DNA from: an uncultured virus (IMG/VR IMGVR_UViG_3300027770_000057) | Taxonomy: Duplodnaviria > Heunggongvirae > Uroviricota > Caudoviricetes | Reading direction: 5' to 3' (one strand) | Length of the DNA stretch: 64,000 nt | IMG/VR virus record: IMGVR_UViG_3300027770_000057 | Location: 1 to 64,000 of that record | In this document: positions 2,171 through 57,531 of the stretch, piece after piece | How the letters are laid out: every line of letters starts with the position of its first letter | Position numbering within the stretch: position 1 is the stretch's first letter | Translations under genes and position numbers: made by a program | Notes under the pieces: model-generated | Database searches by the model: none | What the model saw: the letters and a program-made list of their open reading frames with translations, nothing else | What the model was told of the DNA's origin: nothing

Positions 2171-2800
2171 TTATTTTAATATTTTATATAATTTTACATC
2201 TTCAGAATAATAAGACTTGACTCTTTCAATGATATCTTCTGATAGTTTTGGCTTTTCAAACTTTCCTTCATTGACTTTTTCCATTGGCCAATTTAATTCT
2301 GCATCTTTGCATAATTTTTCTAAGTCATCAGGAAACAAATAAAGTTTAGTAATTGGTTTTATCAAATAAGATTGCGTAAGAAAATGAGTGTTTTTTCTTA
2401 AATTTATACTTGTTTTTTCCAATACAACATTTTCATCGTTCTCAAGTGCTTTAATTGCTTTTTCAGGAGCTATTTCAAGATAAGCTACTGTAGAAGCAAA
2501 TCTAACTATTGGATCACGAACAGGCAATAAAACAACTGTATCTGGATCTTTTGAATAAGGACAAATGTTTTGCCAAAAAGCTATTGAATCTAATTTTTCA
2601 TTTTTTAACATTTTTTGAAAAGATTCTGGCAAACTATCTTTAAAATTTTGTGAAAACCTTGACCAAATTCTTTCGTGATCATCTAAAGCTTTTTTTAATT
2701 CTTCAGGATAATACTGTTTTACAATAGCACACGCCAAAGTGGATGAACCAACTTTGGCGTTAAATGCAATATGACATTTAGGTAATTTAAAATATCTCAT
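2171..2800 (-). CDS. sulfotransferase family 2-like protein
   Basis: 5'-PSB-like NAKVGSST, 3'-PB-like VRDPIVRFAS, HFLTQS, C-terminal YSEDVKLY. Confidence 0.75.
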   Translation of the reverse strand: MRYFKLPKCHIAFNAKVGSSTLACAIVKQYYPEELKKALDDHERIWSRFSQNFKDSLPESFQKMLKNEKLDSIAFWQNICPYSKDPDTVVLLPVRDPIVRFASTVAYLEIAPEKAIKALENDENVVLEKTSINLRKNTHFLTQSYLIKPITKLYLFPDDLEKLCKDAELNWPMEKVNEGKFEKPKLSEDIIERVKSYYSEDVKLYKILK

Positions 2801-2836
2801 AAAATATATTAGTTAATTTATGAGATATTTTTAAAA

Positions 2837-3187
2837 TTATACTGCTGGAGCAGGAGTTGTTGCTTCTGGAACAGGGGTTGTTGCTTCTGGAACAGGAGTT
2901 GTTGCTTCTGGAACAGGAGTTGTTGCTTCTGGAACAGGAGTTGTTGCTTCTGGAACAGGAGTTGTTGCTTCTGGAACAGGAGTTGTTGCTTCTGGAACAG
3001 GAGTTGTAGTTGGAATTGTACCAATTACTTCAATTTCTGCTTTAGGATTACCTTCTTTGTATTTATCAATACATAATTGTAAACCGCCAGCATCTTCAAT
3101 TATTGAATTACTCCAAATACTCATAACAATGTCATCTTTATTAGTAACTACTACTCTTGTTTCTTCAATTTTAACTTTAATCTTCAT
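2837..3187 (-). CDS. hypothetical protein with mucin-like (TTPVPEA)7 tail
   Basis: 116-aa ORF; GGAG SD; tandem repeat tail. Confidence 0.75.
   Translation of the reverse strand: MKIKVKIEETRVVVTNKDDIVMSIWSNSIIEDAGGLQLCIDKYKEGNPKAEIEVIGTIPTTTPVPEATTPVPEATTPVPEATTPVPEATTPVPEATTPVPEATTPVPEATTPAPAV
2851..3007. repeat. 21-bp tandem repeat CAGGAGTTGTTGCTTCTGGAA, about 7.5 copies
   Basis: Seen directly; one copy has a single substitution. Confidence 0.95.
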
Positions 3188-3567
3188 TTTGGACTCCTTT
3201 TAACATGATGTTTGCCATCTATTTCTGTTATTTCACAACCAAATTTTTTGTACCATTTTAATAATTTTTCTTGGTTCATTCCCAAAAAAAACTTATCTTT
3301 TTTTGTAACAGAAGGCCCAACTAATGTTGGATAAGCTATTCCTAACATTGTAATTTTATTTTTATCTGCTAAATTACATAAAAACTTGCAAGTTTTATTT
3401 GCCTCAAAAGGATTGAATGAAATTATTTTTATTAATTTAAAAGTACTTTCATTAATCATTTTGCATCTTAGAAGAGTTTCCCCATGTTTCAAATGATGTC
3501 CACATGGGGATGTATTTTTATTTAACTCTTCCCAAAAAGAATTATCAATAGGTGTAATAATATTCAC
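3184..3567 (-). CDS. GNAT-like (acyltransferase-fold) protein, degenerate motif A
   Basis: LCNLADKNKITMLGIAYP…LLKWYKKFGCE resembles the GNAT C-terminal strand/helix with WYxxxG; no clear R/QxxGxG motif. Confidence 0.45.
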   Translation of the reverse strand: MNIITPIDNSFWEELNKNTSPCGHHLKHGETLLRCKMINESTFKLIKIISFNPFEANKTCKFLCNLADKNKITMLGIAYPTLVGPSVTKKDKFFLGMNQEKLLKWYKKFGCEITEIDGKHHVKRSPK

Positions 3568-3578
3568 CTATAATGAAA

Positions 3579-3938
3579 TTAATTATCATAGTCGCCATCA
3601 ACAAACTTACCATTTGCATCTTTGATAACTAAGAAATCAACATCTCTTTTCTTGTTTCCTGAAATGGTAAAGCTAGTTACAAGACCATCACCATTTACAT
3701 TTTTATAAAGACCCCAAGCTTTGCCAGCAGTAACAATAGTTAATTTTTCTGGAACATCCCAAACATATTCAGGAAGTTCAACATTGGCTTCTCCATTATT
3801 ACCTTCTTCAATATAAACAGTTCCACTATAAACAACATGTGGATCTAAAATAGAAACATATTGTGTTCTATTGTTTAATGGCCCTTTGTTAGGCTCTCCT
3901 GCACCATTGCCAACACCTGTAACACTTGAAGCACCCAT
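3579..3938 (-). CDS. MGASS-leader family protein 4 (putative virion decoration protein)
   Basis: N-terminus MGASSVTGVGNGA; AAGGAG SD; beta-rich body. Confidence 0.8.
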   Translation of the reverse strand: MGASSVTGVGNGAGEPNKGPLNNRTQYVSILDPHVVYSGTVYIEEGNNGEANVELPEYVWDVPEKLTIVTAGKAWGLYKNVNGDGLVTSFTISGNKKRDVDFLVIKDANGKFVDGDYDN

Positions 3939-4011
3939 AATATTCTCCTTTTTATAATTGTTAAAATAAACAATTCTTATACTATCTATTAATTTTAAAA
4001 AATATCTTACA

Positions 4012-4045
4012 AATAAATATACTCATGTAGATGAGTATATTTATT
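4012..4045 (-). terminator. 15-bp-arm inverted repeat between leader-family genes
   Basis: AATAAATATACTCAT-gtag-ATGAGTATATTTATT directly after the stop of 4052..4585. Confidence 0.65.
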
Positions 4046-4051
4046 AAGATA

Positions 4052-4585
4052 CTAAAGTGCAGCTATTGCTGTTTTAAAAGCAGCAAAATCAGCACAGCTA
4101 GAAACTAAAGTCTTTAAATCAGATATTTTAATCCAAATATTATTGTTATTAAAATCTTTAATATCTCCGCCATCTGGTAATGTCATAATGCCATTATCAT
4201 GAAATCTCCAGTTGTTATTATCAACATCAATGTTTACTTGATGTTCATCGCTAGCACTATCTCCACCATCAAGATTATCATCAAGGCTGTGATTGCCTAC
4301 AGTAATACTTACAGCAGGACCATAATTTTCTTCCATGTCTCTTTGACCACCCCACCATAATCCTAAATATTCTGTATTACTTGAAGCCCAAATTACTGAT
4401 TCTTGATCAAGAGATTCCTGATCTGATGCCCATAGTGTTCCAACTAAAAGATCACCAGTAAAGGCAGTAAGGTCTACTATGTTTGATAAATTCCTTACAT
4501 TTTCTGGTTTAATATTATTTTGAATTCTTGGAAAAGAATTCTCCACTGCTCCACTACCTGTACCTTCTGTTGATGTTGCTCCCAT
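4052..4585 (-). CDS. MGASS-leader family protein 3 (fibre-like C-terminus); start reassigned to 4585
   Basis: MGATSTEGTGSGA at ATG 4585 with AGAAAGGA SD; WRFHDNGIMTLPDGG and LKTLVSSCADFAAFKTAIAAL resemble phage fibre segments. Confidence 0.8.
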   Translation of the reverse strand: MGATSTEGTGSGAVENSFPRIQNNIKPENVRNLSNIVDLTAFTGDLLVGTLWASDQESLDQESVIWASSNTEYLGLWWGGQRDMEENYGPAVSITVGNHSLDDNLDGGDSASDEHQVNIDVDNNNWRFHDNGIMTLPDGGDIKDFNNNNIWIKISDLKTLVSSCADFAAFKTAIAAL

Positions 4586-4609
4586 AATTATTTTCCTTTC
4601 TATAAAAAA

Positions 4610-4642
4610 AATATTACAGGGTTTTATAAACCCTGTAATATT
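4610..4642 (-). terminator. 15-bp-arm hairpin with A-tract (U-tract on the minus strand)
   Basis: AATATTACAGGGTTT-tat-AAACCCTGTAATATT downstream of 4656..5066. Confidence 0.7.
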
Positions 4643-4655
4643 AAGTTGCATTACA

Positions 4656-5066
4656 TTAAATTACATTAAGACCATACTTAACAACTTGATACATGAATAC
4701 TCTTTCATCATTATCGCCTGTATGAAGATTGAAGCCACCGAATCCACTATCCCAACCTTCATCAGCATTGTTGCCGTTGGCATCAAGCTTTTCGATATGT
4801 GGTGGATAGTTATTACGACCATCACTATTAGTAAAGTCAGATTGCATAGCAAAAACGCCATACTTTTCTGGACCTTCTGGAAATTCTGGTAGCCTCACAA
4901 TAACTTGCCAATTGCCAGAACCTGTAGTATCTGGCTCTGTGGTACATTCTCCACATGCTACCACAACACAACCAGCACCTATTGGAGCAAAATAATCACG
5001 ACCATTGTGTGGCCCTTTGGTAAAAGCTGCACCAACGCCTGTACCAGTAACACTTGAAGCACCCAT
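4656..5066 (-). CDS. MGASS-leader family protein 2
   Basis: N-terminus MGASSVTGTGVGAA; AGAAAGGA SD. Confidence 0.8.
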   Translation of the reverse strand: MGASSVTGTGVGAAFTKGPHNGRDYFAPIGAGCVVVACGECTTEPDTTGSGNWQVIVRLPEFPEGPEKYGVFAMQSDFTNSDGRNNYPPHIEKLDANGNNADEGWDSGFGGFNLHTGDNDERVFMYQVVKYGLNVI

Positions 5067-5101
5067 AATAAGTTCCTTTCTAAAAAACTTAATTTTTAAT
5101 T
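5056..5101. repeat. 46-bp exact direct repeat, copy 1 (translation-initiation region plus first codons)
   Basis: GAAGCACCCATAATAAGTTCCTTTCTAAAAAACTTAATTTTTAATT identical to 5425-5470. Confidence 0.9.
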
Positions 5102-5435
5102 ACAATCCTATTCCTTTATAAACTACCATATAGTTTACAACATCACTTCCACTTGCATATACAGTAAATTTCCAATTTGCATCAACTGCGGAAGCAGAAG
5201 TAGCAGCAGGACTAGAAGCATCAGTATTAGTTACTAATACAATCCATTCTGTATTATCATCACTTAATTGTGGTAATTGAACAACTTTTGAACCGCCTGA
5301 ACATGTTACAGAATTAGCTGCACCAATATAAGGCCCAATTAAGTGTGAAACTCCAAGAGTTTGACGACCACTAGCACCTTTGTTTGATGATTCAGCAGAT
5401 CCTACACCTTTACCGCTAACACTAGAAGCACCCAT
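5100..5435 (-). CDS. MGASS-leader family protein 1
   Basis: N-terminus MGASSVSGKGVGSA; ends VVNYMVVYKG, similar to FMYQVVKYG of protein 2 and VDFLVIKD of protein 4. Confidence 0.8.
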   Translation of the reverse strand: MGASSVSGKGVGSAESSNKGASGRQTLGVSHLIGPYIGAANSVTCSGGSKVVQLPQLSDDNTEWIVLVTNTDASSPAATSASAVDANWKFTVYASGSDVVNYMVVYKGIGL

Positions 5436-5470
5436 AATAAGTTCCTTTCTAAAAAACTTAATTTTTAATT
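5425..5470. repeat. 46-bp exact direct repeat, copy 2
   Basis: Identical to 5056-5101. Confidence 0.9.
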
Positions 5471-5555
5471 TAATTAAAGTCTAATTTATATATTTTTAAT
5501 TTAAATTAATTATTTATTTTTTGGTTAGAATTCCTACCAAAAAAGTAAATAATAT

Positions 5556-6146
5556 ATGATTCAAAAATGGCAATACTTTGAAAGTAATTTAACTTTAAGT
5601 GAAAGAGAATCACAAATTATAACAGGTACATTGCTTGGAACATCTTCTATTGTATTTCCTGATAAATCTAAGAATCCACATCTTTTAATGAGATCTCCTA
5701 AGAAAGATCCAATTTGGATTAGATGTAAAGCTTTTGAATTAAAAAAACTATCTAGACCTAAATCTTTTATAGAAGATAAATATTATTATAGGTGGAATTC
5801 ATCATCGACAGAATTATTAAAAAATCATTATAATATTTTTTATAAAAAAGGAACCAAACAAATATCTTTTAAATTATTAGAATCATTAAAACCATTATCT
5901 ATAGCTTGTTGGTTTTTAGATAAAGGATTTATCAATGAATATGAATGTGGATTAAAATTAAATACATCTAATAAATCACTTGAAAATATATTAAATTTTT
6001 TTAAATTATTAGACATTCCTTTATTTAAAAAACAAAACTATTACATTTTTAAAGAAAAGAAAAATGTAAATTCTTTTTTTAATATAATAAAAAATCATAT
6101 ACCAATTGAAATAAAAAAGAATATATTAATACATTTGGAATTTTAA
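5556..6146 (+). CDS. LAGLIDADG-type homing endonuclease-like protein, catalytic residues degenerate
   Basis: QIITGTLLGTSSI (cf. GxLLGDG) and LSIACWFLDKG (cf. LAxWFMDDG); YNIFYKKGTKQI segment typical of LAGLIDADG_2. Confidence 0.7.
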   Translation: MIQKWQYFESNLTLSERESQIITGTLLGTSSIVFPDKSKNPHLLMRSPKKDPIWIRCKAFELKKLSRPKSFIEDKYYYRWNSSSTELLKNHYNIFYKKGTKQISFKLLESLKPLSIACWFLDKGFINEYECGLKLNTSNKSLENILNFFKLLDIPLFKKQNYYIFKEKKNVNSFFNIIKNHIPIEIKKNILIHLEF

Positions 6147-6377
6147 GACATTATCATATAAATCTTTTAAAGTTATGCCTGTATTTAAATTATTATAAAT
6201 AGTATCGTCAACTTTAATTTTAAATTTAATCTCAATATCAAAAATAAGTTGCATCATATCCAAGGAATCAACTTTTAAATCAAAGATTTTTGTAATTTCG
6301 TTTATTTCATCTACAGAACATGAATCTGCTAAAGATTCACAGATAACTTCTTTGAATGTTTCAAAATTTAGTTCCAT
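6126..6377 (-). CDS. acpP: acyl carrier protein
   Basis: Acidic 83-aa protein with DLKVDSLDMMQL (phosphopantetheine Ser motif), IEIKFKIKV and TLKDL. Confidence 0.85.
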   Translation of the reverse strand: MELNFETFKEVICESLADSCSVDEINEITKIFDLKVDSLDMMQLIFDIEIKFKIKVDDTIYNNLNTGITLKDLYDNVLKFQMY

Positions 6378-6490
6378 GATATTCTCCGAATATGTATCAT
6401 AACTTTAATTATATTATTAATAATCATATTATGTGTCAAGTAAAAATTATTTATTGTTAAACTTTATAATTTTTTTTTATATATTTCTTT

Positions 6491-8041
6491 TTAAAGCGGT
6501 TCCTCACAATCTAAGAGTTGATTTTCTAATTCTTGAATTTCTTCATTTAATGTTTGAATCATATTAAGAAGTTGGTTTATATCGCCTTCTAACTCATCAT
6601 CTTTATCTTCGGCCTCACTTCTTTTTTCTCGCAGAGGTTTTAAGATAGAATTATAATATTCAAGTTCATCAAGCGTATATTGCGTAGTTTCTTTTTTTGT
6701 ATTTTTTAAGTTATCAGCAAGGCTACGCACAGAAGCTATTCCATCGTTACCAATTCCATAGGCTGTATAATCAGGATTATTCATAATGTCACCAATAGCT
6801 CTAAATCGCTCTTCGTTGTCTTCCTTATATTGCGATATTCTTAGCAGATCATATGGGTCTAGAATTTCGTTAGAATATATTTTTTGCAATTCTATATTGT
6901 TAAATTTTATGGAATTGTTTGCGAATTCATATTGTCTTACAAGGTCTATAATATTGGACACAATACCATATAATCTATCAATTTCATCTTGTATTTGTTC
7001 ATTATATTCATTATTAGAATCACTATTAGGATCATCTTCTATTAATTGGTTTATTTTATCATTTAATTCGTCATATTCTTTTTGAGTGTCATTTAAATAT
7101 TTTTGAGGTTCTTCTCGTTCTTTTGTTTTATCAGCAATACTTGTTTCCTTATTTAGTACTTGGATTTCTTTTTCTCTTATGTTTTCTCTTATTGTATCAC
7201 AATTTGGTCGTTGTGTTGTTGTACTTGTTGTTGTACTTGTTGTTGTACTTGTTGTTGTACTTGTTGTTGTACTTGTTGTTGTACTTGTTGTTGTACTTGT
7301 TGTTGTACTTGTTGTAGTCGTTGTAGTCGTTGTAGTTGGTGCTTCTGTTGTTGTAGGTGCTTCTGTTGTAGAACCATCACCGTCAAAAGAAAATATTGTT
7401 CTTGTTCTTGTTCTTGCTATTGTTCTTGCTCTTGTTGTGGTAGGTGCTTCTGTTGTGGTAGGTGCTTCTGTTGTTGTAGGTGTACTTTTTGTATGGCCAT
7501 TACCGTCAAAAGAAAACATTGGTTTTGTTTTTATTTTATTTAAAGTAGAATTATTTAAATTTTTTATTGTTCTTTTAGATTGATTAATTCTGTCAAGTTC
7601 TACATAAGTATTTGTTAATTTATTTATACTAACTTTTGTTTTTTTTAATTTTTCTATTAGCTCTAATGTATTTTCTGTATTTTCTAGAAGATTATTCTCT
7701 GTTTTTTTGAATTTACTTTGCAATGATGTAATTTTATTAGAAAATAAATTGTTTTTATCAATTGCAATATTTTTTTTATCTTTAACTAATTTTAAGTTTT
7801 GTTCAGTTGGATTATCAATATAATCATTAATAGTTTTTATTAATTCATCTGCTGAAACATTATTTCTTCTAAATGAATTTTTGCTATTATCAAATGATTG
7901 CTTGGTTTTTTTAAAACTTAAAGTACTTTTTTTTATATTATTTAAAAGTTTATTAGATTTTTCTATAGATTCTGTTGTATTTGATTTTATCAAATTAACA
8001 AATTGTCTTGCTTCTTTAATTTTAGATTTTATTTTTTTCAT
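6491..8041 (-). CDS. coiled-coil protein with central Thr-rich low-complexity linker
   Basis: Basic N-terminal coiled coil, TTTEAP/TTTS repeats, acidic C-terminal coiled coil. Confidence 0.75.
   Translation of the reverse strand: MKKIKSKIKEARQFVNLIKSNTTESIEKSNKLLNNIKKSTLSFKKTKQSFDNSKNSFRRNNVSADELIKTINDYIDNPTEQNLKLVKDKKNIAIDKNNLFSNKITSLQSKFKKTENNLLENTENTLELIEKLKKTKVSINKLTNTYVELDRINQSKRTIKNLNNSTLNKIKTKPMFSFDGNGHTKSTPTTTEAPTTTEAPTTTRARTIARTRTRTIFSFDGDGSTTEAPTTTEAPTTTTTTTTTSTTTSTTTSTTTSTTTSTTTSTTTSTTTSTTTQRPNCDTIRENIREKEIQVLNKETSIADKTKEREEPQKYLNDTQKEYDELNDKINQLIEDDPNSDSNNEYNEQIQDEIDRLYGIVSNIIDLVRQYEFANNSIKFNNIELQKIYSNEILDPYDLLRISQYKEDNEERFRAIGDIMNNPDYTAYGIGNDGIASVRSLADNLKNTKKETTQYTLDELEYYNSILKPLREKRSEAEDKDDELEGDINQLLNMIQTLNEEIQELENQLLDCEEPL
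7212..7518. repeat. 12-bp (TTTS) tandem repeat, about 8 copies, plus 18-bp TTTEAP units and duplicated FSFDGxG
   Basis: GTTGTTGTACTT repeats and GGTGCTTCTGTTGT units seen directly. Confidence 0.9.
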
Positions 8042-8159: not shown

Positions 8160-8199
8160 AAAAAAACCCACTTAGTTTAACACTAAGTGGGGATTTTTT
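8160..8199 (-). terminator. rho-independent terminator after the major capsid gene (bidirectional-looking)
   Basis: CCCACTTAGT-ttaac-ACTAAGTGGG flanked by A-run and T-run. Confidence 0.85.
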
Positions 8200-8243: not shown

Positions 8244-9674
8244 TCAAATAATAAAATTTGCAATGGAAAGGCGAGCATAAAACTTCGAACCTTCACGCAA
8301 TAGTTTCTTACCATAACGGGTAAGAATACCACGCCTTGGGCAGAAGCTTTCAGGATCAAGAACAGTAGGAGTCTGGGTGAGTGGAACATATGGGCAATAG
8401 AAATATCCACTGTCCATGTAACTGTCGCCCTTATAACCCATTAAGATCTGATTAGATTGGAATAATGGATCTTTGTATATTCTCCAACGATTGTTGATAG
8501 TACCAACATACTGTACACCTAAAGAAGAGGTGAAAGTTTCACTTGGTGCAGGTGCGAAACCAGCAGTTGCGGTTTCAAAGATTGAAGCAACTTCAGGGGA
8601 AGTTACTAACCAATTTGCACCACCACGCAAAGTTTTGCGATGGATAACATTGGAAACCTCAACTACTTTAACATAGAGGGATTCGTATTTTTCTTTAACC
8701 GTATCACCTAAAGCAGTGCTGTAATCCCAAGCTGCTACAGTTCCAGCATTCAAGCGAAGATCTTGAAGAATTTCACGATCAATTTCAAGATTGATTTCTT
8801 GAGCAAGAACAGCAGTCAATTCAGCTTCAGCGTCAAGATTGTGTTGGCTACGAAGATCTTGTTGAGCTTCATAAGACCATACTGCCTTCAATTTACGAGT
8901 TTTTGCAACGATTTCTTCACTTTCAATTACAAGATTGATTTCGGGAAGATCTTGATTGCATTCCATGTTATACTGGTAATTGATAACAACACTAGAAGCA
9001 CCCAATGCGTTATTCGTAGTTAATGAAATTAAGCCAGTAGTATTATCAACGCTACCGCTAACAACCTTATCAGTAGGAGTACCAATATCAGTTGCACTAA
9101 AGCTATTAGAAGCACTAAAGTTGAAAGTCTGGATAGCAACACCGCCATCATAAACGGTTCCAGTGAAGGTTCCAGCTAAGATTGGAGTATGTTCAGCTAC
9201 GAAAGTTAAACTAGTAGTTGCACCAGCATCGCTGTGAGATTCGTTTTGAACGAATTGGCTACTATAGTAAACATCAAGATTTGAAGTACCATCAGCTAAT
9301 TGTTGCAAGCTATTTGCATCATCGCCTGGAAATCCACCATTATTAGATGCACCACGAATTGCACCTTTATTGGATGAATAACGAAAACGGAGATAATACA
9401 CAAGACCAGTAGGCCCTAAAAGAGGTTGTACTGAAACAATCTTGTTAGCAATTAGTTGAGGATAAATCCTGCGTACTAAAGGAATACTGATTCGTTTGAA
9501 CTGAGCAACATCTGAAGTGTCAGTTGAAATTTCGTTAATAAGTCTTTGATTTTCTAAGAGAACTGCTGTAGAAGAGCGAGTGTTAGGATCGGTAATGCCA
9601 TCAAGGATGCCAGTAGTACCCCAACGAGAAACAAGCTCTTTACTCTCAGTTAAAAATTTTGCATTTGCGTTCAT
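8244..9674 (-). CDS. gp23: major capsid protein, T4 gp23 family
   Basis: AVLLENQ, IPLVRR, VSVQPLLGPTGLVYYLR, AKTRKLKAVWSYEAQQDL, EINLEIDREI, GYFYCPYVPL, ILTRYG. Confidence 0.98.
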   Translation of the reverse strand: MNANAKFLTESKELVSRWGTTGILDGITDPNTRSSTAVLLENQRLINEISTDTSDVAQFKRISIPLVRRIYPQLIANKIVSVQPLLGPTGLVYYLRFRYSSNKGAIRGASNNGGFPGDDANSLQQLADGTSNLDVYYSSQFVQNESHSDAGATTSLTFVAEHTPILAGTFTGTVYDGGVAIQTFNFSASNSFSATDIGTPTDKVVSGSVDNTTGLISLTTNNALGASSVVINYQYNMECNQDLPEINLVIESEEIVAKTRKLKAVWSYEAQQDLRSQHNLDAEAELTAVLAQEINLEIDREILQDLRLNAGTVAAWDYSTALGDTVKEKYESLYVKVVEVSNVIHRKTLRGGANWLVTSPEVASIFETATAGFAPAPSETFTSSLGVQYVGTINNRWRIYKDPLFQSNQILMGYKGDSYMDSGYFYCPYVPLTQTPTVLDPESFCPRRGILTRYGKKLLREGSKFYARLSIANFII

Positions 9675-13564: not shown

Positions 13565-16093
13565 TTAAAAATTTTCTTCTGAATGATCAATATCTTCATG
13601 ATCTTGCTCAGAAGCATAGTCTTCAATATTCATATCGTATTTTTCTAAATCTTCTTTGCTTGGTTCCGCTAAAAGCGAACCAGATTGTTTTGAACTTGTA
13701 GGAGGAGTAGTACCGCCTAATTCTCCACCTGTATCAGGACTTGGAGAAGTTTCGCCACTTTCTGGTGGCTGTAATAATGTATTTGGGCCTTCAGGGGTTG
13801 CTCCAATTTCAGGATTTTCCTTAGAATCTGTTCCTTCGGCAGGAATACCTACACCAAGAAGCTGAGGATTTTGAGTAATAATTTGCATCTTAGCATCTTC
13901 AAGTTTTTGAAGTTTCATTCTTGCTACAATTTCTTCAGTCTCATCAGGAGTATACTTCATCCACTTGTTTAGAATGTCATAATCAGAAAGCATAAGAGAA
14001 CTCTTTAGAGATGTGGCATTTGTAATTCTAGCTGCCATAACATCTGCTCTGCTAAGTTCTCTCCAATCTGATGGAGGAGTCATTTTTATAGTTAAATCTA
14101 AATATGATTCTTTGGGATAACCTTTTAACCTTAAATGTCTATCAGCAATTTCCCATAAGCCATCTTCGAAGCAAGATTGAAATCTTTCAATTAATCTTGC
14201 AAATCTAACATCTTGAGCACTTAATGAAATTTTTGTAATATTTACATCTTCAACATTAAAATAATTTTTAGGAAAATTAAGTGCTGTGAATAATTTATTT
14301 CTAAAGTACAAGCAATCATCTACCTCACCTAAGTTTTGAGCACCAGGTAATGTTTCAATTTTAGTATTGCTATTTGGTCTTATTGGTAGCCAATAATCTT
14401 CGTCTTGCGAAGGAGCATGCCATTTTTCATCTACACTATTTGCACCAGATGAGTAACGCATTTGCGTTTTTCTTTTTCTAAATTGATCTTTCATTCTTTC
14501 GATAAATGATTCTGCTTTAAATGGAGGCAAAGTACCAACATCTATGTAAAAAACCCTGCGTTCTGGTGCTCTACTTAGTCTGTAAACAAGCATTGCATCT
14601 TCACATAGTCTTACTTGTTGTGCAGGTCCTCTGGCAGCTTCAACAACTGAAACACCATAAGGATAAAAGCTTTTCCTATCTTCTCCAATTCTGATGTGAA
14701 TTATTTGTTCTGGTGCAAATCTTATTGCTGTAGAATTTATCATTTGCGTATCAGTAGTAGCTACTATTGGAGAAGAAATTAAAGATGTGTAATCTGGCCC
14801 TTCTTTGCTTTGTTGAAACTCAACTATTTTACCTTTTGTAGTTTCTATTCGATACATAGAATCAACTGGCAACCTTGCAATTTTATAAATTCCCTCTGTA
14901 GGATTTTCTTGATTAATTACAATTTCCCAAAACAAATCTCCATAAACTAAAAGATTTTTAAAATCTCCCCAAACTGTACGATTTAAATTAAGCATGCTTC
15001 TGTGATAAAGCAAAAATTTTAATTCTGATTTAATATCTTCATTTTCACAAGAAATTGTAAAAATATTACCATCTGTATCTCTTTGGCAATTATGAACAAT
15101 AATTGAATCTGTTGCGAAGTTATGATGGTTTTCAACTGTCATATCATATACTTCCTGTACAGATCCTTTTTCTACAGCCATTACAACTCTTCTGTCTTTA
15201 TAAGTTTTTAAATACTTCATTTCTTTTACAGAAAATCCATTTTTGCTAAGTCTATATTTTGTAGTTCTCCAATCAACTTTAGTTAAGGTTGCAACATCTT
15301 TGCATTTTAATCCAAGGCTTATAAGTTTCGTTGTTTCGTTTATTTTTTCATATTTATTTAAATCTTTTTCAGCTTTAAATTCTTCAATAAATTGTCTTTC
15401 GTGAATCCATCCCTTTTGGTGGGTGTATATTCTTGGAAATTGATTTATTTTTGATTTTGTTAAATCTTGATTTGCTTTTAATCTATAAAATGGCATTAAT
15501 TGATCATGAAATTTTAAGTCGCCAGCTTGTTTCCAAGTTCCATTTTTCATTAAAATACGATGATCAGCAGTACATTCAATGTGTTCACCATTATCAAAAT
15601 ATACCTTTACTGTTTCTGCTGTTTTTGTAATTCTTACATCGTAAGCCCAACTTAAGGCATAATCTTCTTTTTCAAAATCATAACAATAAACTAAAAATTT
15701 CTGATTTTTCTTTATTTCATATAATTCTTTTATAGTTTTTTGACCAAAAGGCGTTGATATTTTTGTATCGCCAGCCAAGCAAGCTTCATCTGTATAAACA
15801 TTTATTACAGATTCAATTTCTGGCATAGATCTTAATCTATCATATTCCTTATATCTACTCATTCTATTTGAAATCGTAGAAAGATCTATAAAATCATTGC
15901 TTTCTCTTAGTCTTACCAACCTTTGATCTTGATTTCCATAAAATCCACCGTCTGGTGAAATAGAAGGAACTGAATCTGGATTTTGAATACCAGCACCAAC
16001 AATATCTCTCGTAGAAATCTTTTTAGAGATTGGATCATCTGAGAAAGCGTAAGTAAAAGTCTTGTAAAAATTAGCCCAAATTGGTGAAGGCAT
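13565..16093 (-). CDS. gp20: portal protein, T4 gp20 family, interrupted by an intein
   Basis: MPEIESVINVYTDEA, EDAMLVYRLSRAPERRVFYIDVGTLP, EDYWLPIR, IETLPGAQNLGEVDD, FARLIER. Confidence 0.97.
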   Translation of the reverse strand: MPSPIWANFYKTFTYAFSDDPISKKISTRDIVGAGIQNPDSVPSISPDGGFYGNQDQRLVRLRESNDFIDLSTISNRMSRYKEYDRLRSMPEIESVINVYTDEACLAGDTKISTPFGQKTIKELYEIKKNQKFLVYCYDFEKEDYALSWAYDVRITKTAETVKVYFDNGEHIECTADHRILMKNGTWKQAGDLKFHDQLMPFYRLKANQDLTKSKINQFPRIYTHQKGWIHERQFIEEFKAEKDLNKYEKINETTKLISLGLKCKDVATLTKVDWRTTKYRLSKNGFSVKEMKYLKTYKDRRVVMAVEKGSVQEVYDMTVENHHNFATDSIIVHNCQRDTDGNIFTISCENEDIKSELKFLLYHRSMLNLNRTVWGDFKNLLVYGDLFWEIVINQENPTEGIYKIARLPVDSMYRIETTKGKIVEFQQSKEGPDYTSLISSPIVATTDTQMINSTAIRFAPEQIIHIRIGEDRKSFYPYGVSVVEAARGPAQQVRLCEDAMLVYRLSRAPERRVFYIDVGTLPPFKAESFIERMKDQFRKRKTQMRYSSGANSVDEKWHAPSQDEDYWLPIRPNSNTKIETLPGAQNLGEVDDCLYFRNKLFTALNFPKNYFNVEDVNITKISLSAQDVRFARLIERFQSCFEDGLWEIADRHLRLKGYPKESYLDLTIKMTPPSDWRELSRADVMAARITNATSLKSSLMLSDYDILNKWMKYTPDETEEIVARMKLQKLEDAKMQIITQNPQLLGVGIPAEGTDSKENPEIGATPEGPNTLLQPPESGETSPSPDTGGELGGTTPPTSSKQSGSLLAEPSKEDLEKYDMNIEDYASEQDHEDIDHSEENF
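15089..15781 (-). mobile_element. intein (231 aa) in the portal gene
   Basis: Block A CLAGDTKI, block B CTADHRIL, block F VYDMTVENHHNF, block G IIVHN followed by Cys+1. Confidence 0.95.
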
Positions 16094-20222: not shown

Positions 20223-20906
20223 ATGCCAATATCAACACCCAAAAAATTAGTATTTGTTCATGTGCCAAAAACTGGTGGCCAAACAATTTTGAAGTATTTA
20301 AAATTTGAAAGAAAAATCAGAGCTTTTTACGGTAGAACAAAACATGTTTTTGAAAATACTAAATACGGTAAAAAAACAATTTCTGGTATTGAATATAGCC
20401 ATTATACTTTAAGCCTTTTTAAAAAATATTTAAATTACAAAGAATTTAAATATTCTTTTTCTTTTGTAAGAAATCCATTTGAAAGATTAGTTTCAGAGTT
20501 TCATTGGAGAATAAGAGCAAGAATCTCGTGTTGGCCTCTCCAAGATATAGAGCTTAAACCAAGTAACTTTGAAATGTTTGTACATAAATTATCAGAATAT
20601 AAACTTAGTTATTCTGAAAAAGATCTTATCTTGGAATCTCATTATTACCCACAGACTAAATTTGTTTATTTAGATTCATATTTTGAAAATAATAATAAAA
20701 ATGCAAAGGTTTCATTTATTGGTAGATTTGAAAATTTAGAAGAAGATTTAAAAAAAATAGGATCTATTTATAATATTGATCGTATAATTCCTTGGCGAAA
20801 TTCCACATCACATGAAGACTATAAAAGTTTCTATAACAAAACTACTAAAAAGCTAGTTGAGAAAATTTATGAAACTGACTTAAATAATTTTAATTATATT
20901 TTTTGA
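20223..20906 (+). CDS. sulfotransferase family 2 protein
   Basis: FVHVPKTGGQT, FVRNPFERLVSEF, FIGRFENLEED, IYETDLNNFNY. Confidence 0.9.
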   Translation: MPISTPKKLVFVHVPKTGGQTILKYLKFERKIRAFYGRTKHVFENTKYGKKTISGIEYSHYTLSLFKKYLNYKEFKYSFSFVRNPFERLVSEFHWRIRARISCWPLQDIELKPSNFEMFVHKLSEYKLSYSEKDLILESHYYPQTKFVYLDSYFENNNKNAKVSFIGRFENLEEDLKKIGSIYNIDRIIPWRNSTSHEDYKSFYNKTTKKLVEKIYETDLNNFNYIF

Positions 20907-24246: not shown

Positions 24247-24295
24247 TTTGTGTTTTAAAATATAATAAATTATGTTTTCTAAAAGGGAGGAAATT

Positions 24296-24712
<417 letters not shown>

Positions 24713-35800: not shown

Positions 35801-36711
35801 AATTTTAAATATTCTATTAGACTTTCTTTGTTTATATATGTAGCAAAATTAAAAGTTTTTTCTAAACCATGGTGAAAAATATTTAAATTATTATTTTTTT
35901 TCTTTAACCAGAATACCATAGAGTCAATAATTGATTCCGATAATTTATTTTGTTGATATTGATAATGCAATTCATTGTTGTGTAAAATAGTTGCAGGTCT
36001 TTCTTTTTCAAAAGCCTCAGAACAATAAAGTAAAAATATATTTTTTGCATTACAATAATAACAATAATTAATTGCAGCACAAATTGGATTTCTATAATCA
36101 TCTAAATGTTTTGAATCATCATTTTTAACACTTGGATTGTAGTTTTCTAATGGAGTTGGATTGTAAAAATTTATATTTTTATATTTATAATAATCAATAA
36201 ATTTATTATAAACCCTAGTGCTTAATAAACAATTTGGATAAAATTTATTACTAATATTGTTTAAGCATTCTTGAAAAGGATTGTTTTCAACAAACAAATC
36301 AGGTAAAACTTTTATATTATTCCATTTTTTCAAAGAGTTATTAGTTAAAATAATAAATTTTTTATTAATGTTTATTTTTTCTAAAATGTTTTCTATGTTA
36401 TTAAAACCAAAACCATCTGAGACTATTATTACATTTTTTTGACTTAAATCTTTTGGTTCAAATCTTGGAATGTTTGAACCAATGTTTTTATTATCATTTT
36501 CAATGAAGAATTTTATTTCATCATCTTTATAAAGTTTATTAATATCAATTGGTCTTGCATGTGGCAAAGTAAAATTTCTTACCCATATATTTTTTTCTAC
36601 ATAAATATATTGATTGCCATTTTTATGATTTTTTATTGTTAAATTTTTATCTTTATTTTCTAGGAGGACACGGTATGATTGCAAAACAGGGGAGGTCTTC
36701 GGCATTTTCAT
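35797..36711 (-). CDS. MptE/Maf (DUF115)-like Rossmann-fold transferase, degenerate
   Basis: VIIVSDGFGF…FIILTNNSL…PDLFV…AAINYCYYCNAKNIFLL follows the DUF115 motif order; start uncertain. Confidence 0.5.
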   Translation of the reverse strand: MKMPKTSPVLQSYRVLLENKDKNLTIKNHKNGNQYIYVEKNIWVRNFTLPHARPIDINKLYKDDEIKFFIENDNKNIGSNIPRFEPKDLSQKNVIIVSDGFGFNNIENILEKININKKFIILTNNSLKKWNNIKVLPDLFVENNPFQECLNNISNKFYPNCLLSTRVYNKFIDYYKYKNINFYNPTPLENYNPSVKNDDSKHLDDYRNPICAAINYCYYCNAKNIFLLYCSEAFEKERPATILHNNELHYQYQQNKLSESIIDSMVFWLKKKNNNLNIFHHGLEKTFNFATYINKESLIEYLKL

Positions 36712-39700
36712 CTCCAGTTAATTTCTTGTAATCAATCTCAACTTTTACTTCTATAGGTGATCCCTTGTAAACCATTTCAATCTCTGGATTGTCAGGCATA
36801 CTTAATTTTATTTCACTTGGAATTGAACCAATAAGTTCAATGTAATCTGGTATGCCTGTTACACTTATACTTGTTGGCATGTTTTCAAAGTCAACTTTAA
36901 TAGTTTTAGGAATTTCAATATCACTATGTAACTTAATAATTGAAGGTAAATTTTCACTGTTAATTTTAATAAATTCTGGAATTGAACCAGCATCAATGTT
37001 AATTTTTTCTGGTATGTTATGATTAATGTTAATTTCATTAGGTATTTGTTGATTAAATATTACATTAATATCTTTAATTTCTGGAACAATAACTGAAATA
37101 TATTCTGGTATATCATGCAAAACCATAATATCGTTAATTTCAGGAACAACAAGCTTAATTTCATCTGGAATACCAACAAAATCATAATTAACTTCCATTC
37201 CTAATTCATCGTAGTAACCTTGTCCATTGTCACTAGGAGAAATATTTGTTTTCCCAGAGTTTAAAGCTGCTGACACAGCATTCGAAGGACATACAACTCT
37301 TACTATACATGAAACAATAGGAGGAGTTCCCCAATCAACAGAAATTCTTGGTGGTCTACCATAATCTAAACTTATATTTGGAGGATTATCAAATTTAATA
37401 ATTAATGATGGTGGTTTTCCAAAAGGTATTGGTGCAAATGATGGTGGCTTATCAAATCCAACTTTTGAAAATGAAGGAGGCGTATCAAAACTTACTTTTC
37501 CAAGTGAAGGTTTATCAAATCCAACTTTTGGAAACGAAGGTATATTTTCAAAACTTACCACAATCTTTGGCACTGGCCCAAAACTTATAAATCCAAATGA
37601 TGGAGGTTCACAGAAGCTTATACATTCAAATGATGGAGGAGAACCAAAACTTATTAAAAAATTAGATGGTGTACAAAAACTAATACATGGAATCTTTACA
37701 CAAACACTTATGCAAGGCATCACAGAAGGAATTAAAAAGCTAATTGGTGGTATTAATGGTATATTGGAAACAAAACTAATTGGTGGTATTTTTGGCGGGG
37801 GACAAATGCTAATACAACTAATAATAGGAACATTACAAAAACTTATACAGGGAGGAGTTGACCAACTTACAATTAAAGATGGAGCCTTTTCAAATCTTAT
37901 TTTTTCAAAGCTTGGTGGCTTTTCAAAACTAATAATATTTGGCAATGAAGGTATATTGCAGAAACTTATACATTTAGGAAAACTTGGTACATTAATAAAA
38001 CTAATAGGTGTAAAACTTGGTGCATCACAAAAACTAACGCATGGAAACGATGGTGGCTTACAGAAGCTTATGCATGGAAACGATGGTGCTTTTGTAAAAC
38101 TAATAATATTTGGCAGTGAAGGTACATTGCAGAAACTTATACATTGAGGGAAGCTTGGCACATTACAGAAGCTTATACATGCAAACGATGGTGCTTTTGC
38201 AAAGCTAATAATATTTGGCAGTGAAGGTACATTGCAGAAACTTATACATTGAGGGAAGCTTGGCACATTACAGAAGCTTATACATGCAAACGATGGTGCT
38301 TTTGCAAAACTAATAATATTTGGCAATGAAGGTATATTGCAGAAACTTATACATTGAGGGAAGCTTGGCACATTACAGAAGCTTATACATGCAAATGATG
38401 GTGCTTTTGCAAAACTAATAACATTTGGCAATGAAGGTATATTGCAGAAACTTATACACTTAGGAAAACTTGGAACATTACAGAAGCTTATGCATGTAAA
38501 CGATGGTGCTTTTGCAAAACTAATAACATTTGGTAGTGAAGGTACATTGCAGAAACTTATGCACTTAGGAAAACTTGGTACATTACGGAAACTTATAGCA
38601 CTTGGTATACTTGGTAAGTTAACAAAACTTATAGATTTTGGTAAACTTGGTAAGTTAACAAAACTTATAGACTTGGGTAAACTTGGTACATTTACAAAAC
38701 TTATAGACTTGGGTAAACTTGGTACATTTACAAAACTTATAGTGCAAAAACTTGGCACATTAACAAAACTTATAGTGCAAAAACTTGGCACATTAACAAA
38801 ACTAATTGCTGGAAAACTTGGTGGTTTTTTAAAACTAATTGCTGGAAAACTTGGGGTTCTATCAAAACTAATCTTTGGAAAAGATGGTGGCTTTGCAAAA
38901 CTAATAACTTTAGGGAAACTTGGTACATTAACAAAACTTATAGACTTAGGGAAACTTGGCAGATTAACAAAACTTATAGATTTAGGGAAGCTTGGCACAT
39001 TAACAAAACTTATAGACTTAGGAAAACTTGGTACATTTACAAAACTTATAGATTTAGGGAAACTTGGGACATTAACAAAACTTATAGATTTAGGGAAACT
39101 TGGTACATTAACAAAACTTATAGCTCTACAAAAGCTTGGTATATTAACAAAACTAATCGGTGGAAACGATGGTGGCTTCGTAAAACTAATTGGTGCAAAA
39201 GATGGTGGTCTTGTAAAACTCAACTTTGGAAAACTTGGCGGTCTATCAAAGCTTATCTTTATAAACGATGGCGGTCTATCAAAACTTATCTTTGGAAAAG
39301 ATGGCGGTCTATCAAAACTAATCTTTGGAAAGCTTGGTGGTCTATCAAAACTAATCTTTGGAAAAGATGCTGGCTTTCCAAAGCTAATCTTTGGAAAACT
39401 TGGTGGTTTATCAAAACTAATCTTTGGAAAAGATGGCGGTCTTGCAAAACTCAACTTTGGAAAACTTGGTGGTTTATCAAAACTAATCTTTGGAAAAGAT
39501 GGCGGTCTTGTAAAACTCAATTTTGGAAAAGATGGTATTGTAAAACTAATTGGTGGAAAAGTTGGTGGTCTTGTAAAACTAATTGGTGCAAAACTTGGTG
39601 GTTTTCCAATGCTTATTTCTGGGAACTTTGGAGGACAAATACTAATACAAAATTTTGGAGGACAAATACTAATACAAAAACTTGGAGGAAATAATTTAAT

Positions 39701-40900
39701 TCCATCATTTGGATTAAATTTAATATTTATAACAGATGGAATACAAGGAAAAAAACAACTAATTGGTGGAATATTAGATGGAGGAATAATCGTTATTACA
39801 CTTGGAATATAATTTCCAATTGGTGGAATAACTACACTAATAATGCTAGGTATTGGTTCGGTAGGAATAATTAGTATTGTAGATGGAACATTAATAGGAC
39901 TAAATTCAATTAATGACGGAATAGTATTTAGTGGGCCAAAATTAATTTGACTTGGTATTGGAGGAACAACTGATATGATAGAAGGTATATTTATATTTGG
40001 AATACCAATATCAAAATTAGGAAATATTATAGGTGGAAGATTAATTATTGCATCTGGAACTTGAGGAATTGTAATATCTAAAGGAGGTAAGGCAGGACAT
40101 TCAGGAATTTGAATAAATACTGGCTCTGGTGCTACTGGCAAAGTAGGTTCATTTGCATTATTTCTTATCGTTGGAGTTTGAACTATATTACAGTTATTTG
40201 TTTCTACATTAACAACTGGATCTATTTGAACAGATGTTGCATATAAATGCGTACCAGTTAATTCATTTGTAGTAGAAGTTCCATCGCCAAAATCAATTTT
40301 AAAATTTTTATAACCACCTATAATTTTTAAATTGTAACTTATAACAGTTCCGCTATTTGGATCTTTGCTTAATGTAATGACAGAAAAATTTACATCTGGA
40401 CATCCATAATCATCAAATATAGGAGGTGTATTGAATAAGTTTCTTATTTTCCAATCTAAAGTTTTTTGATCCTCATCAAAATCAATTCCAATAAAATTTT
40501 CAATATTTACAATTGCTTGAGCTAATTGATTGTGATGCTCAGCTACAACAAGACCTCTAATTGATACACCAGCTAAGTTATAGCGAGTTGGCTTGCCACC
40601 TATATTCCTGATACAGTCTTTTAAAGCTACAACTTTTCCTGTTTGATAATCTTTATCAACTCTTCTGTAATAAAGAAGTTCACCTTCTATAGTTGCAAAT
40701 CCATTATCTGGCCAAGGATCTTCAATTAAATTAGTATTTTTATAACCTTCAATATAAATTATTTCAGACCAAGCTTCATTATCTACAACAAGAAATGACT
40801 CGGTAGTATTATGTACCTTGTATAAAGTATAATCAGAATCTATTCCTAAAGGATAGATTGGTTGTGGTATGAAGTTTTGTTCTTTGTCTATACTTTCCAA
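36653..40900 (-). CDS. large virion-type protein: AEHHN domain, PKD domain, long Pro/Cys-rich ISFxxxP repeat array
   Basis: 1415 aa; VVAEHHNQL; IDFGDG (PKD); repeats. Confidence 0.8.
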   Translation of the reverse strand: MESIDKEQNFIPQPIYPLGIDSDYTLYKVHNTTESFLVVDNEAWSEIIYIEGYKNTNLIEDPWPDNGFATIEGELLYYRRVDKDYQTGKVVALKDCIRNIGGKPTRYNLAGVSIRGLVVAEHHNQLAQAIVNIENFIGIDFDEDQKTLDWKIRNLFNTPPIFDDYGCPDVNFSVITLSKDPNSGTVISYNLKIIGGYKNFKIDFGDGTSTTNELTGTHLYATSVQIDPVVNVETNNCNIVQTPTIRNNANEPTLPVAPEPVFIQIPECPALPPLDITIPQVPDAIINLPPIIFPNFDIGIPNINIPSIISVVPPIPSQINFGPLNTIPSLIEFSPINVPSTILIIPTEPIPSIISVVIPPIGNYIPSVITIIPPSNIPPISCFFPCIPSVINIKFNPNDGIKLFPPSFCISICPPKFCISICPPKFPEISIGKPPSFAPISFTRPPTFPPISFTIPSFPKLSFTRPPSFPKISFDKPPSFPKLSFARPPSFPKISFDKPPSFPKISFGKPASFPKISFDRPPSFPKISFDRPPSFPKISFDRPPSFIKISFDRPPSFPKLSFTRPPSFAPISFTKPPSFPPISFVNIPSFCRAISFVNVPSFPKSISFVNVPSFPKSISFVNVPSFPKSISFVNVPSFPKSISFVNLPSFPKSISFVNVPSFPKVISFAKPPSFPKISFDRTPSFPAISFKKPPSFPAISFVNVPSFCTISFVNVPSFCTISFVNVPSLPKSISFVNVPSLPKSISFVNLPSLPKSISFVNLPSIPSAISFRNVPSFPKCISFCNVPSLPNVISFAKAPSFTCISFCNVPSFPKCISFCNIPSLPNVISFAKAPSFACISFCNVPSFPQCISFCNIPSLPNIISFAKAPSFACISFCNVPSFPQCISFCNVPSLPNIISFAKAPSFACISFCNVPSFPQCISFCNVPSLPNIISFTKAPSFPCISFCKPPSFPCVSFCDAPSFTPISFINVPSFPKCISFCNIPSLPNIISFEKPPSFEKIRFEKAPSLIVSWSTPPCISFCNVPIISCISICPPPKIPPISFVSNIPLIPPISFLIPSVMPCISVCVKIPCISFCTPSNFLISFGSPPSFECISFCEPPSFGFISFGPVPKIVVSFENIPSFPKVGFDKPSLGKVSFDTPPSFSKVGFDKPPSFAPIPFGKPPSLIIKFDNPPNISLDYGRPPRISVDWGTPPIVSCIVRVVCPSNAVSAALNSGKTNISPSDNGQGYYDELGMEVNYDFVGIPDEIKLVVPEINDIMVLHDIPEYISVIVPEIKDINVIFNQQIPNEININHNIPEKINIDAGSIPEFIKINSENLPSIIKLHSDIEIPKTIKVDFENMPTSISVTGIPDYIELIGSIPSEIKLSMPDNPEIEMVYKGSPIEVKVEIDYKKLTGDENAEDLPCFAIIPCPPRK
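37320..39700 (-). repeat. 33/36-bp degenerate tandem repeat array with a 105-bp higher-order unit
   Basis: SFPKISFDRPP and SFPKSISFVNVP units; 35-aa super-unit recurring at 38122, 38227 and 38332. Confidence 0.9.
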
Positions 40901-56257: not shown

Positions 56258-56779
56258 TTATCCTCCTGTTTCTAATATGTTCTTAGAACCTGGTAAATTA
56301 AAAGTTGCATAAACTACTTCAAATGATAATTCAACATCAAATTTCATTGGTAAAAAAGTCGCTTCATCCCACATAACATCAACTGGAAATTTAACATTGT
56401 AACTTTTTAAAACTGCACATAAAGGATTATCTCCAAGGAGATATCCACATTTTATGGTTACTAATGGAGGTGGAACCATCACGGTACTAGTACCTGAATC
56501 AGGGTAAACTAAGCTTTCTAAAAATCTTAAATCATACAAATTGTACTGAGATTCTTCTTCGCTCTCAGCAAAAAAGTGAACACTCCAACTTATTGACCTT
56601 GTGTCACCATGAGAAAAAACTTTTAATGGTGCAGACCTACCGATGCCACTTTCGTCTGAATAATTAGCTTGTTTTTGATCACTAATATCAGGTAAAATTT
56701 TCATTTCTAAAGTTGTTTTACCTGATTTAATGTAGCAGTCTGTTAATCTTCTTAATTTACCGTTTACTGTTGCTTTCAA
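56258..56779 (-). CDS. tail tube initiator / contractile-system tube-like protein
   Basis: ANYSDESGIGRSAP, LESLVYP, PPPLVTIKCG, LPMKFDVELSF. Confidence 0.7.
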   Translation of the reverse strand: MKATVNGKLRRLTDCYIKSGKTTLEMKILPDISDQKQANYSDESGIGRSAPLKVFSHGDTRSISWSVHFFAESEEESQYNLYDLRFLESLVYPDSGTSTVMVPPPLVTIKCGYLLGDNPLCAVLKSYNVKFPVDVMWDEATFLPMKFDVELSFEVVYATFNLPGSKNILETGG

Positions 56780-56808
56780 TTTATTTCCTTTTATTATTAT
56801 TATATAGT

Positions 56809-57531
56809 ATGGAATTTACACAAACTAAATTAAAATTTATAGTTACTGGTACTGGTAGATGCGGAACATTGTATTTATCAAAATTATTATCTTTTTGTAA
56901 TACTTTTTGTGGTCATGAAACTATTTTTGATTATTCTTCATGGAACACAATTCTTCAGAGATTGTTTAATGATAAAAAACTAATTTTAAGTAAAATAGCA
57001 AAAGATACCTATGGAGATTACTTAGAAGATAAAAACATCGAAGCTGATTCTAGTTATATGGCAATGCCATACATACACCTTAATATATTCAATAGTTGTA
57101 ATTTTATTCATGTAATAAGACATCCAGAAAATGTTATTAATTCGTTTTGTCATTATTTAAATTATTTTTACGATGAATCTTTTTTTTCTTTAAAAGAATA
57201 TGATAAAAAATATTTAAATTTTATTTATAAAAATGTACCAGATATTAAAAAATATAAAAATCCTTATGATAGAGCAGCATATTTTTATCTCTATTGGAAT
57301 AATCAAATAGAAGAAAAATTAAAAAATAAAAATAAAATATTAATTAAAATTGAAGAAATTAAAAATAATAAATTATTAGAAGATTTTGTTGGAATTAAAG
57401 TACCTGATGATTTTGAAAAAATATCAACAAATAAAATTGAATATAAAAGATTTAAATTAAAAAATATAAAAAATATAAAAATAAGAAATGATATATTTAA
57501 TTTTTGTGAAAAACATGAATATAATTATTAA
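56809..57531 (+). CDS. sulfotransferase-like P-loop protein
   Basis: FIVTGTGRCGT…CGHE, IHVIRHPENVINS, YWN; start reassigned to ATG 56809. Confidence 0.75.
   Translation: MEFTQTKLKFIVTGTGRCGTLYLSKLLSFCNTFCGHETIFDYSSWNTILQRLFNDKKLILSKIAKDTYGDYLEDKNIEADSSYMAMPYIHLNIFNSCNFIHVIRHPENVINSFCHYLNYFYDESFFSLKEYDKKYLNFIYKNVPDIKKYKNPYDRAAYFYLYWNNQIEEKLKNKNKILIKIEEIKNNKLLEDFVGIKVPDDFEKISTNKIEYKRFKLKNIKNIKIRNDIFNFCEKHEYNY

Follow-up and report, generated by a model that had tools for sequence, protein, structure and literature searches.

Does a giant phage acylate the N-termini of its own proteins? The question arises at positions 2171-8041 of the uncultured-virus record IMGVR_UViG_3300027770_000057, of which the window analysed here comprises the first 64,000 nt. 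The complete record is 72 kb and belongs to a giant phage of the T4-like kind, whose capsid protein shares 75% identity with that of LR756511.1 (an uncultured phage of 595 kb), and the genomes of other relatives reach 527-533 kb. In a first-pass annotation, an acyl carrier protein (ACP), four proteins with Met-Gly leaders, a GNAT-like gene, Thr-rich proteins and a sulfotransferase were taken together as a single system that would acylate the leaders at Gly2. We find that the four leaders are copies of one N-terminal peptide, hereafter the tag, and that this tag is carried by unrelated bodies across the relatives, in arrays of varying size and with patchy neighbours. Our preferred reading, with a probability of roughly 0.6, is that the array encodes fibre-tip-like proteins docked to the virion via the tag, and that the neighbouring ACP, GNAT and sulfotransferase likely do not acylate it.

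A shared tag on exchangeable bodies

The four tagged genes lie on the minus strand and were named in that order: MG1 (5100-5435, 111 aa), MG2 (4656-5066, 136 aa), MG3 (4052-4585, 177 aa) and MG4 (3579-3938, 119 aa). All four products share an N-terminal peptide, M-G-A-[TS]-S-x-x-G-x-G-x-G, which occurs four times in the 72 kb record and in none of 20 codon shuffles. MG1, MG2 and MG4 are knob proteins, MG1 and MG2 with bodies of one family, from which the body of MG3 differs. The start of MG3 is at 4585 rather than 4651, with a ribosome-binding site immediately 5' of it. AAGGAGA is present in 43 of 104 upstream regions, compared with 0.8 in shuffles, and the tag Met can be taken as the true start because ribosome-binding sites lie upstream.

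Searches with the tagged proteins returned 52 and 49 viral loci. A total of 128 loci of relatives (given L-numbers below) were pooled, of which 121 are tagged; clustering at 95% identity divides these into 62 groups. Seven body families and one truncated case were found behind the tag, including knobs, a Gly-rich repeat, solenoid-like bodies and others. The arrays themselves are fluid: MG1 and MG2 have a duplicated start region (77 nt, 88% identity), close relatives differ in array size (four tagged genes here, five in L073), and in L072, a locus cut at its start, two tagged genes are seen with MG4 directly after MG1. Pfam and PHROGs gave no match for the four tagged proteins, and the tag strings were absent from the literature searched (mostly open-access texts).

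Of the 96 distinct tags, 93 have Gly as residue 2, two have Ala and one has Ser; the Gly share is inflated by search patterns themselves containing Gly2. The departures from Gly are found in L015 (twice, Ala2) and L076 (Ser2), and a further Ala2 tag, beyond the 96, occurs in G059. Residues 2-5 are strongly conserved, and position 6 is Val in 80 tags and Ser or Thr in 11. The N-myristoylation consensus requires Ser or Thr at position 6, so that only these 11 match it, and the presumed substrates are not strictly Gly2. A small residue at position 2 favours Met removal. With only Gly, Ala or Ser at this position, the pattern points to removal of Met1 rather than to a Gly-specific acyltransferase.

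In the MG1 structure model, residues 1-31 have pLDDT<50 and the remainder forms a confident beta-sandwich. Its best fold matches are the tips of the Pam1 tailspike, the R2 pyocin fibre, K1 lyase and phage tail fibres (probability 1.0, best E 1.5e-3 to 9e-3), and its Atlas neighbours agree (K1-lyase-C, H-lectin, gp53-C). MG1 therefore has the flexible N-terminal segment and fibre-type knob seen in head fibres and capsid spikes. The tag is likely a virion-docking peptide, by analogy with such proteins, and the docking site is probably the capsid. The major capsid gene, of T4 gp23-type, lies close by on the minus strand (8244-9674; Pfam Gp23 E 6e-89), and its product is 74-95% identical across relatives. 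Following loss of Met1, the flexible, Gly-rich tag would become ordered at a conserved particle site, with its various bodies serving as interchangeable knobs that would bind host-surface or other glycans. The knob proteins may be trimeric, by reference to their fold relatives only. The decoration role first proposed for the leader proteins is retained.

Similar anatomy is known from other phages. The available excerpt on crAss001 (PMC10172136) describes head fibres of which N-terminal residues 1-38 and 1-58 bind hexon pockets; these proteins, gp21 and gp29, are small fibres held to the capsid by short N-terminal stretches, and their distal domains are presumed to bind the host or environment. 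However, crAss001 uses two fibres for two different pockets, whereas here a single tag is found on at least seven body families, and the likeness drawn here is one of anatomy. In the Pseudomonas phage Pa223, residues 2-41 of the spike gp52 attach to the capsid, as described in the excerpt of 10.1101/2025.06.11.659172, again giving a flexible N-terminal attachment segment from residue 2 and a C-terminal knob. That protein is the product of a single gene, with a triple beta-helix shaft and a TNF-fold knob, while MG1 is without a shaft and has a knob resembling K1-lyase-C and gp53-C. T4 Hoc and phi29 gp8.5 are also accessory head proteins for surface attachment, on a gp23-type or other capsid, but in the excerpt of PMC7602432 they appear as Ig or coiled-coil bodies from one gene, without a shared tag family. 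If the docking tag is real, an uncultured giant freshwater phage clade swaps surface domains behind one handle of 12-14 residues, which would provide a sequence rule for annotating decoration proteins and possibly a display handle.

The MG4 cassette and its GNAT-fold protein

Linkage of the GNAT to one of the tagged genes is real, the gene being MG4. It lies directly 5' of the GNAT gene in 9/9 true viral loci and in 17/17 evaluable metagenome loci (of 19). An apparent tenth viral locus, L063, was dropped as a spurious match inside a 744-aa gene. The GNAT gene (3184-3567, minus strand) is followed by a gene for a Pro-rich protein (2837-3187, minus strand) that overlaps its stop by 4 nt, and then by a gene for a Sulfotransfer_2-like enzyme (2171-2800, minus strand), wherever the contig reaches; among the 13 sulfotransferase loci, all 11 that could be evaluated are in the cassette. 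This four-gene cassette, headed by MG4, occurs in at least four contexts: at the core locus, behind the capsid gene, within an island of sugar enzymes and, in L076, behind an unrelated ACP. In L076:7950-8711 one extra base at the junction brings the GNAT and the Pro-rich protein into a single reading frame, a fusion that may be real or an assembly slip.

The Pro-rich protein combines a conserved domain of ~55 aa with a variable Pro-rich spacer. Its tail consists of TTPVPEA repeats here, but the Thr is lost in relatives, where Pro, Ala, Glu and Val are used instead; Thr-rich tails as glycosylation or sulfation acceptors were ruled out on this basis. In L084:79-858 the Pro-rich protein is followed by an F5/8 carbohydrate-binding domain. 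This contig is possibly chimeric across a repeat, with downstream genes that look eukaryotic giant virus-like, and the fusion was not used as evidence.

Assignment as a sulfotransferase is weak for the protein encoded here (PF03567 E 0.12, below cut-off) and better supported in its family, with four of six aligned homologues matching (best E 2e-5). Invariant residues are K16-x-x-S-S, R95-x-P-x-x-R-x-x-S and H139, which we take to be the PAPS-binding motifs. A sequence search of the PDB with the sulfotransferase profile gave no significant match. Sugar enzymes often flank the cassette, from which it is likely that the sulfotransferase acts on a glycan, and the cassette is probably a surface-decoration module. 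By motif, two more sulfotransferase-like open reading frames (ORFs) are present in the window (20223-20906 and 56770-57531), as are glycosyltransferase-like genes, and glycosylation or sulfation by the phage may extend to several targets.

The first-pass annotation had called the 3184-3567 product GNAT-like with little confidence; structure prediction followed by Foldseek now supports the fold. The 127-aa protein gives a confident single-domain model (pLDDT 85), nearly all of the Foldseek matches listed are GNATs (probability 1.0, best E 2e-3, with none at E<=0.001), and Acetyltransf families are found on 11-16% of members among its Atlas neighbours. Neither Pfam, PHROGs nor NCBIfam yielded a match, and a PDB sequence search with the GNAT profile returned nothing significant. 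A family search over 1.84 billion representatives identified 11 close and nine distant relatives, from which 17 sequences including the query were aligned. The Gly-rich pyrophosphate loop between strand 4 and helix 3 is absent in 10/10 close members aligned, while a GxG remnant of this CoA phosphate loop is kept in 6/7 distant relatives. A GPS insertion after strand 5 is conserved in the family. Judged from the alignment, this minimal GNAT has probably lost normal CoA binding, and the loop loss would fit either a dead enzyme or a GNAT that uses ACP.

Comparison with known GNATs bears on both options. Eukaryotic N-myristoyltransferase is a double GNAT using myristoyl-CoA; in contrast, the window protein has a single domain, and the tags do not conform to the consensus at position 6. 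The eukaryotic enzyme acts on the N-terminal Gly following Met removal (PMC8339906, in excerpt). The ACP-using option is raised because HlyC-type GNATs also lack the CoA phosphate loop: excerpts of PMC8339906 and PMC9703596 describe the HlyC/TAAT acyl-ACP acyltransferases as a GNAT fold without the canonical CoA-binding loop. The same excerpts have these enzymes acylating internal Lys residues of RTX toxins using a conserved His, and neither HlyC nor ApxIC is among the Foldseek matches listed for the window protein. The most compact GNAT fold match is AcrVA5 (PDB 6iuf; target TM 0.67, rmsd 3.4), from which the window family differs in being without the Gly-rich CoA loop, in its GPS insertion and in its tie to a knob gene. 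The GNAT gene is optional in the cassette, because it is lacking in L092-L094, where MG4, a divergent Pro-rich protein and the sulfotransferase persist.

Acylation weighed against docking

Neighbours were counted over the flanks of the tagged loci in the 62 groups. A LAGLIDADG gene is found in 44 groups, GNAT in 10 and ACP in two, and 52 groups have neither GNAT nor ACP nearby. In whole records, most of which are fragments, PF00550 detects an ACP in 1/41 and a phage-ACP profile in 3/31, with the window's own record detected as a positive control, while the GNAT family occurs in 1/41. The full-length genomes G018, G020 and LR756511.1 are firmer. All three have tagged genes and none has this GNAT family; an ACP is present in G020 only, ~194 kb from the tagged gene. 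Each of the three has other GNATs, but these are not orthologous (four of six compared, <=31% identity). The first-pass annotation had anticipated linkage of both genes to the leaders, and this holds for GNAT with MG4; for the tagged genes at large, ACP and GNAT are largely unlinked to leader genes in relatives, as 52/62 groups have neither.

The proposal that the GNAT acylates every tagged protein at Gly2, with the phage ACP as the donor, draws on the GNAT fold, the prevalence of Gly2 and the placement of all the genes here inside 6 kb. Against these stand the neighbour counts and full-length genomes, as well as the Ala2 and Ser2 tags and the scarcity of Ser or Thr at position 6. Furthermore, in L154 the ACP is intact although no GNAT was found over 116 kb and the tagged gene at the locus is decayed (L154:6900-7080; ATG and ribosome-binding site lost, internal deletion), and a phosphopantetheinyl transferase was found in 0/4 records searched. 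We consider this proposal scarcely credible. Modification of the tag by an enzyme of the host, or by one from a different family encoded elsewhere in the phage genome, would account for the strong conservation of residues 2-5, and some GNAT is available in each full-length genome. However, no GNAT is common to those compared and a tight binding pocket accounts for the conservation without modification, making this quite improbable as well.

A narrower possibility is that the MG4 cassette alone is an acylation or decoration unit, in which the GNAT would acylate an amine of MG4 or of the Pro-rich protein in HlyC-like fashion, from a phage or host acyl-ACP. The invariable position of MG4 argues for it, as does the GxG loop, lost in the close family and kept in distant relatives. 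In L076, moreover, the gene directly 5' of MG4 encodes an ACP that gives no BLAST alignment to the window ACP, and in L052 the same place is occupied by a weak acyl-CoA-ligase-like gene (E 6e-5, far below cut-off). On the other hand, an ACP is present in only 2/8 GNAT groups with upstream DNA covered, L092-L094 dispense with the GNAT, the L076 tag has Ser2, loop loss fits a dead enzyme equally well and the loci are phylogenetically related, so that their counts are not independent. On balance we regard it as unlikely. The same holds for the broader picture of a ~500-kb phage clade with a universal plug-in virion tag, in which the sub-cassette GNAT would lipidate its own knob or the Pro-rich partner alongside the sulfotransferase, to yield a surface protein with chemical decorations. 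Phage-encoded lipid acylation of a virion protein, if true, would be the more surprising outcome, and no such report was found in the literature searched. Within mostly open-access texts, we found none joining jumbo phage, acyl carrier, GNAT and virion, and no phage case of myristoylation among the matches listed.

The tag might also be a signal of another kind. It could anchor the proteins to the tail or baseplate, nucleate trimers or direct packaging in the manner of the T4 capsid-targeting sequence. Knob folds of this type are characteristic of tail-fibre tips, and linkage to the capsid gene is loose, this gene being inside the examined locus in 17/62 groups. However, many proteins of the phage family already bear another leader, of MKxFxE-type, which presumably resembles the T4 capsid-targeting signal. 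Sharing of the tag by unrelated body folds is more readily reconciled with one docking site for all than with an aid to folding, and the tail genes, from reading of the ORFs, are >40 kb away in the window. We view such a signal as possible, if rather improbable. Several observations nevertheless weigh against docking of the tag to the capsid. The MG1 fold matches are all above E 0.001, and because the fold is best known from tails, the anchor may be the tail or baseplate. The tagged gene of LR756511.1 is 22 kb from the capsid gene. MG1 had no tblastn match in 50,697 records of sequenced phages (INPHARED), in a search that is insensitive, LR756511.1 having a distant tagged gene. Gly2 is very conserved, although its count is inflated. 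Finally, docking leaves unexplained the tight MG4-GNAT link and the ACP just 5' of MG4 in L076.

Organisation of the locus and neighbouring genes

All nine genes lie where they had first been placed. They do not form one transcription unit, because an intrinsic-terminator-like hairpin (8167-8191, minus strand) follows the capsid gene and because the ACP gene is arranged tail-to-tail with a LAGLIDADG gene on the opposite strand; a single operon for the whole run was ruled out accordingly. Sigma70-like sites precede the Thr-rich gene (11/12 matches) and the ACP gene (6411-6439; 10/12), although such sites are not enriched in the record (38 vs 42 in shuffles). No conserved T4-type late promoter emerged from the regions upstream of the tagged genes. 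The stretch is best described as a mosaic of three units. The core would comprise a dead LAGLIDADG regulator and the tagged array, the second unit would be the mobile cassette of MG4, GNAT, Pro-rich protein and sulfotransferase, and the third would consist of stand-alone insertions, the ACP and the Thr-rich protein.

The LAGLIDADG-fold protein (5556-6146, plus strand, 196 aa; LAGLIDADG_2 match) is encoded divergently from the tagged genes in the 44 groups counted above and also lies beside the tagged gene in LR756511.1, a distribution that is not sporadic or mobile as for a homing endonuclease. At the positions that we take to be the catalytic Asp of the two motifs, the residue is replaced in all homologues covering them (47/47 and 48/48 rows, with 49 aligned). 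Between this gene and MG1 lies a pseudo-palindrome, TTGG-N12-CCAA (5521-5540). Exact matches to TTGG-N9-16-CCAA occur in 8/45 LAGLIDADG-adjacent upstream regions, compared with 0.9 in shuffles, and in 2/54 other upstream regions; with one mismatch allowed, the counts are 28 vs 10.6 and 20 vs 11.5, respectively. The pattern was picked after viewing the upstream regions and the test is post hoc. From these sequence features, the protein is likely a candidate WhiA-like domesticated regulator and the palindrome a candidate operator. WhiA/DUF199 is a LAGLIDADG fold turned regulator (PMC3984707, in excerpt). The likeness would lie in this domestication, whereas WhiA is bacterial and the phage protein, with its putative regulatory role, matches LAGLIDADG_2 only. 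If true, this nuclease-dead LAGLIDADG protein and the palindrome that it faces would represent a phage example of a homing endonuclease co-opted for regulation.

The ACP (6126-6377, minus strand) scores 27.9 bits against PF00550 (cut-off 20.8), has the DSL serine and retains an invariant DSLD. It follows the junction of the capsid and LAGLIDADG genes in one lineage (L069, L073, L119, L153 and L154), with L119 having ACP and tags without GNAT, and the palindrome and LAGLIDADG gene intact in L154 beside the decayed tagged gene. It is a lineage-level accessory gene with a promoter-like site of its own. The excerpt of PMC13573597 places the ACPs of other jumbo phages in islands of unknown function. 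The Thr-rich coiled-coil protein (6491-8041, minus strand) is a strain-level insertion, found only in near-identical copies of this phage and absent from L073, L119, L153 and L154.

Three further genes are conserved beside the tagged locus in many relatives, encoding a 103-aa protein (1833-2144), a trypsin-like protease with a signal-like N-terminus (168-947) and a small Cys-rich protein (981-1196). Short, diverged capsid-gene fragments (mostly residues ~390-470) lie close to the tagged locus and separate from the full-length gene in L012, L022, L025, L027, L028, L029, L030, L037 and L105, and are possible recombination scars. Elsewhere in the window, a 1415-aa protein (36653-40900, minus strand) starts with a structural-looking N-terminus and continues in long Pro/Ser/Phe/Cys repeats (ISFxKPPSF, ISFCNVPSF). 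A portal-like gene (13565-16093, minus strand) contains an insertion bounded by C-LAGDT and HN-C, presumably as in an intein, and a 146-aa protein composed almost wholly of Asp and Glu (24272-24712, plus strand) is a possible nucleic-acid mimic.

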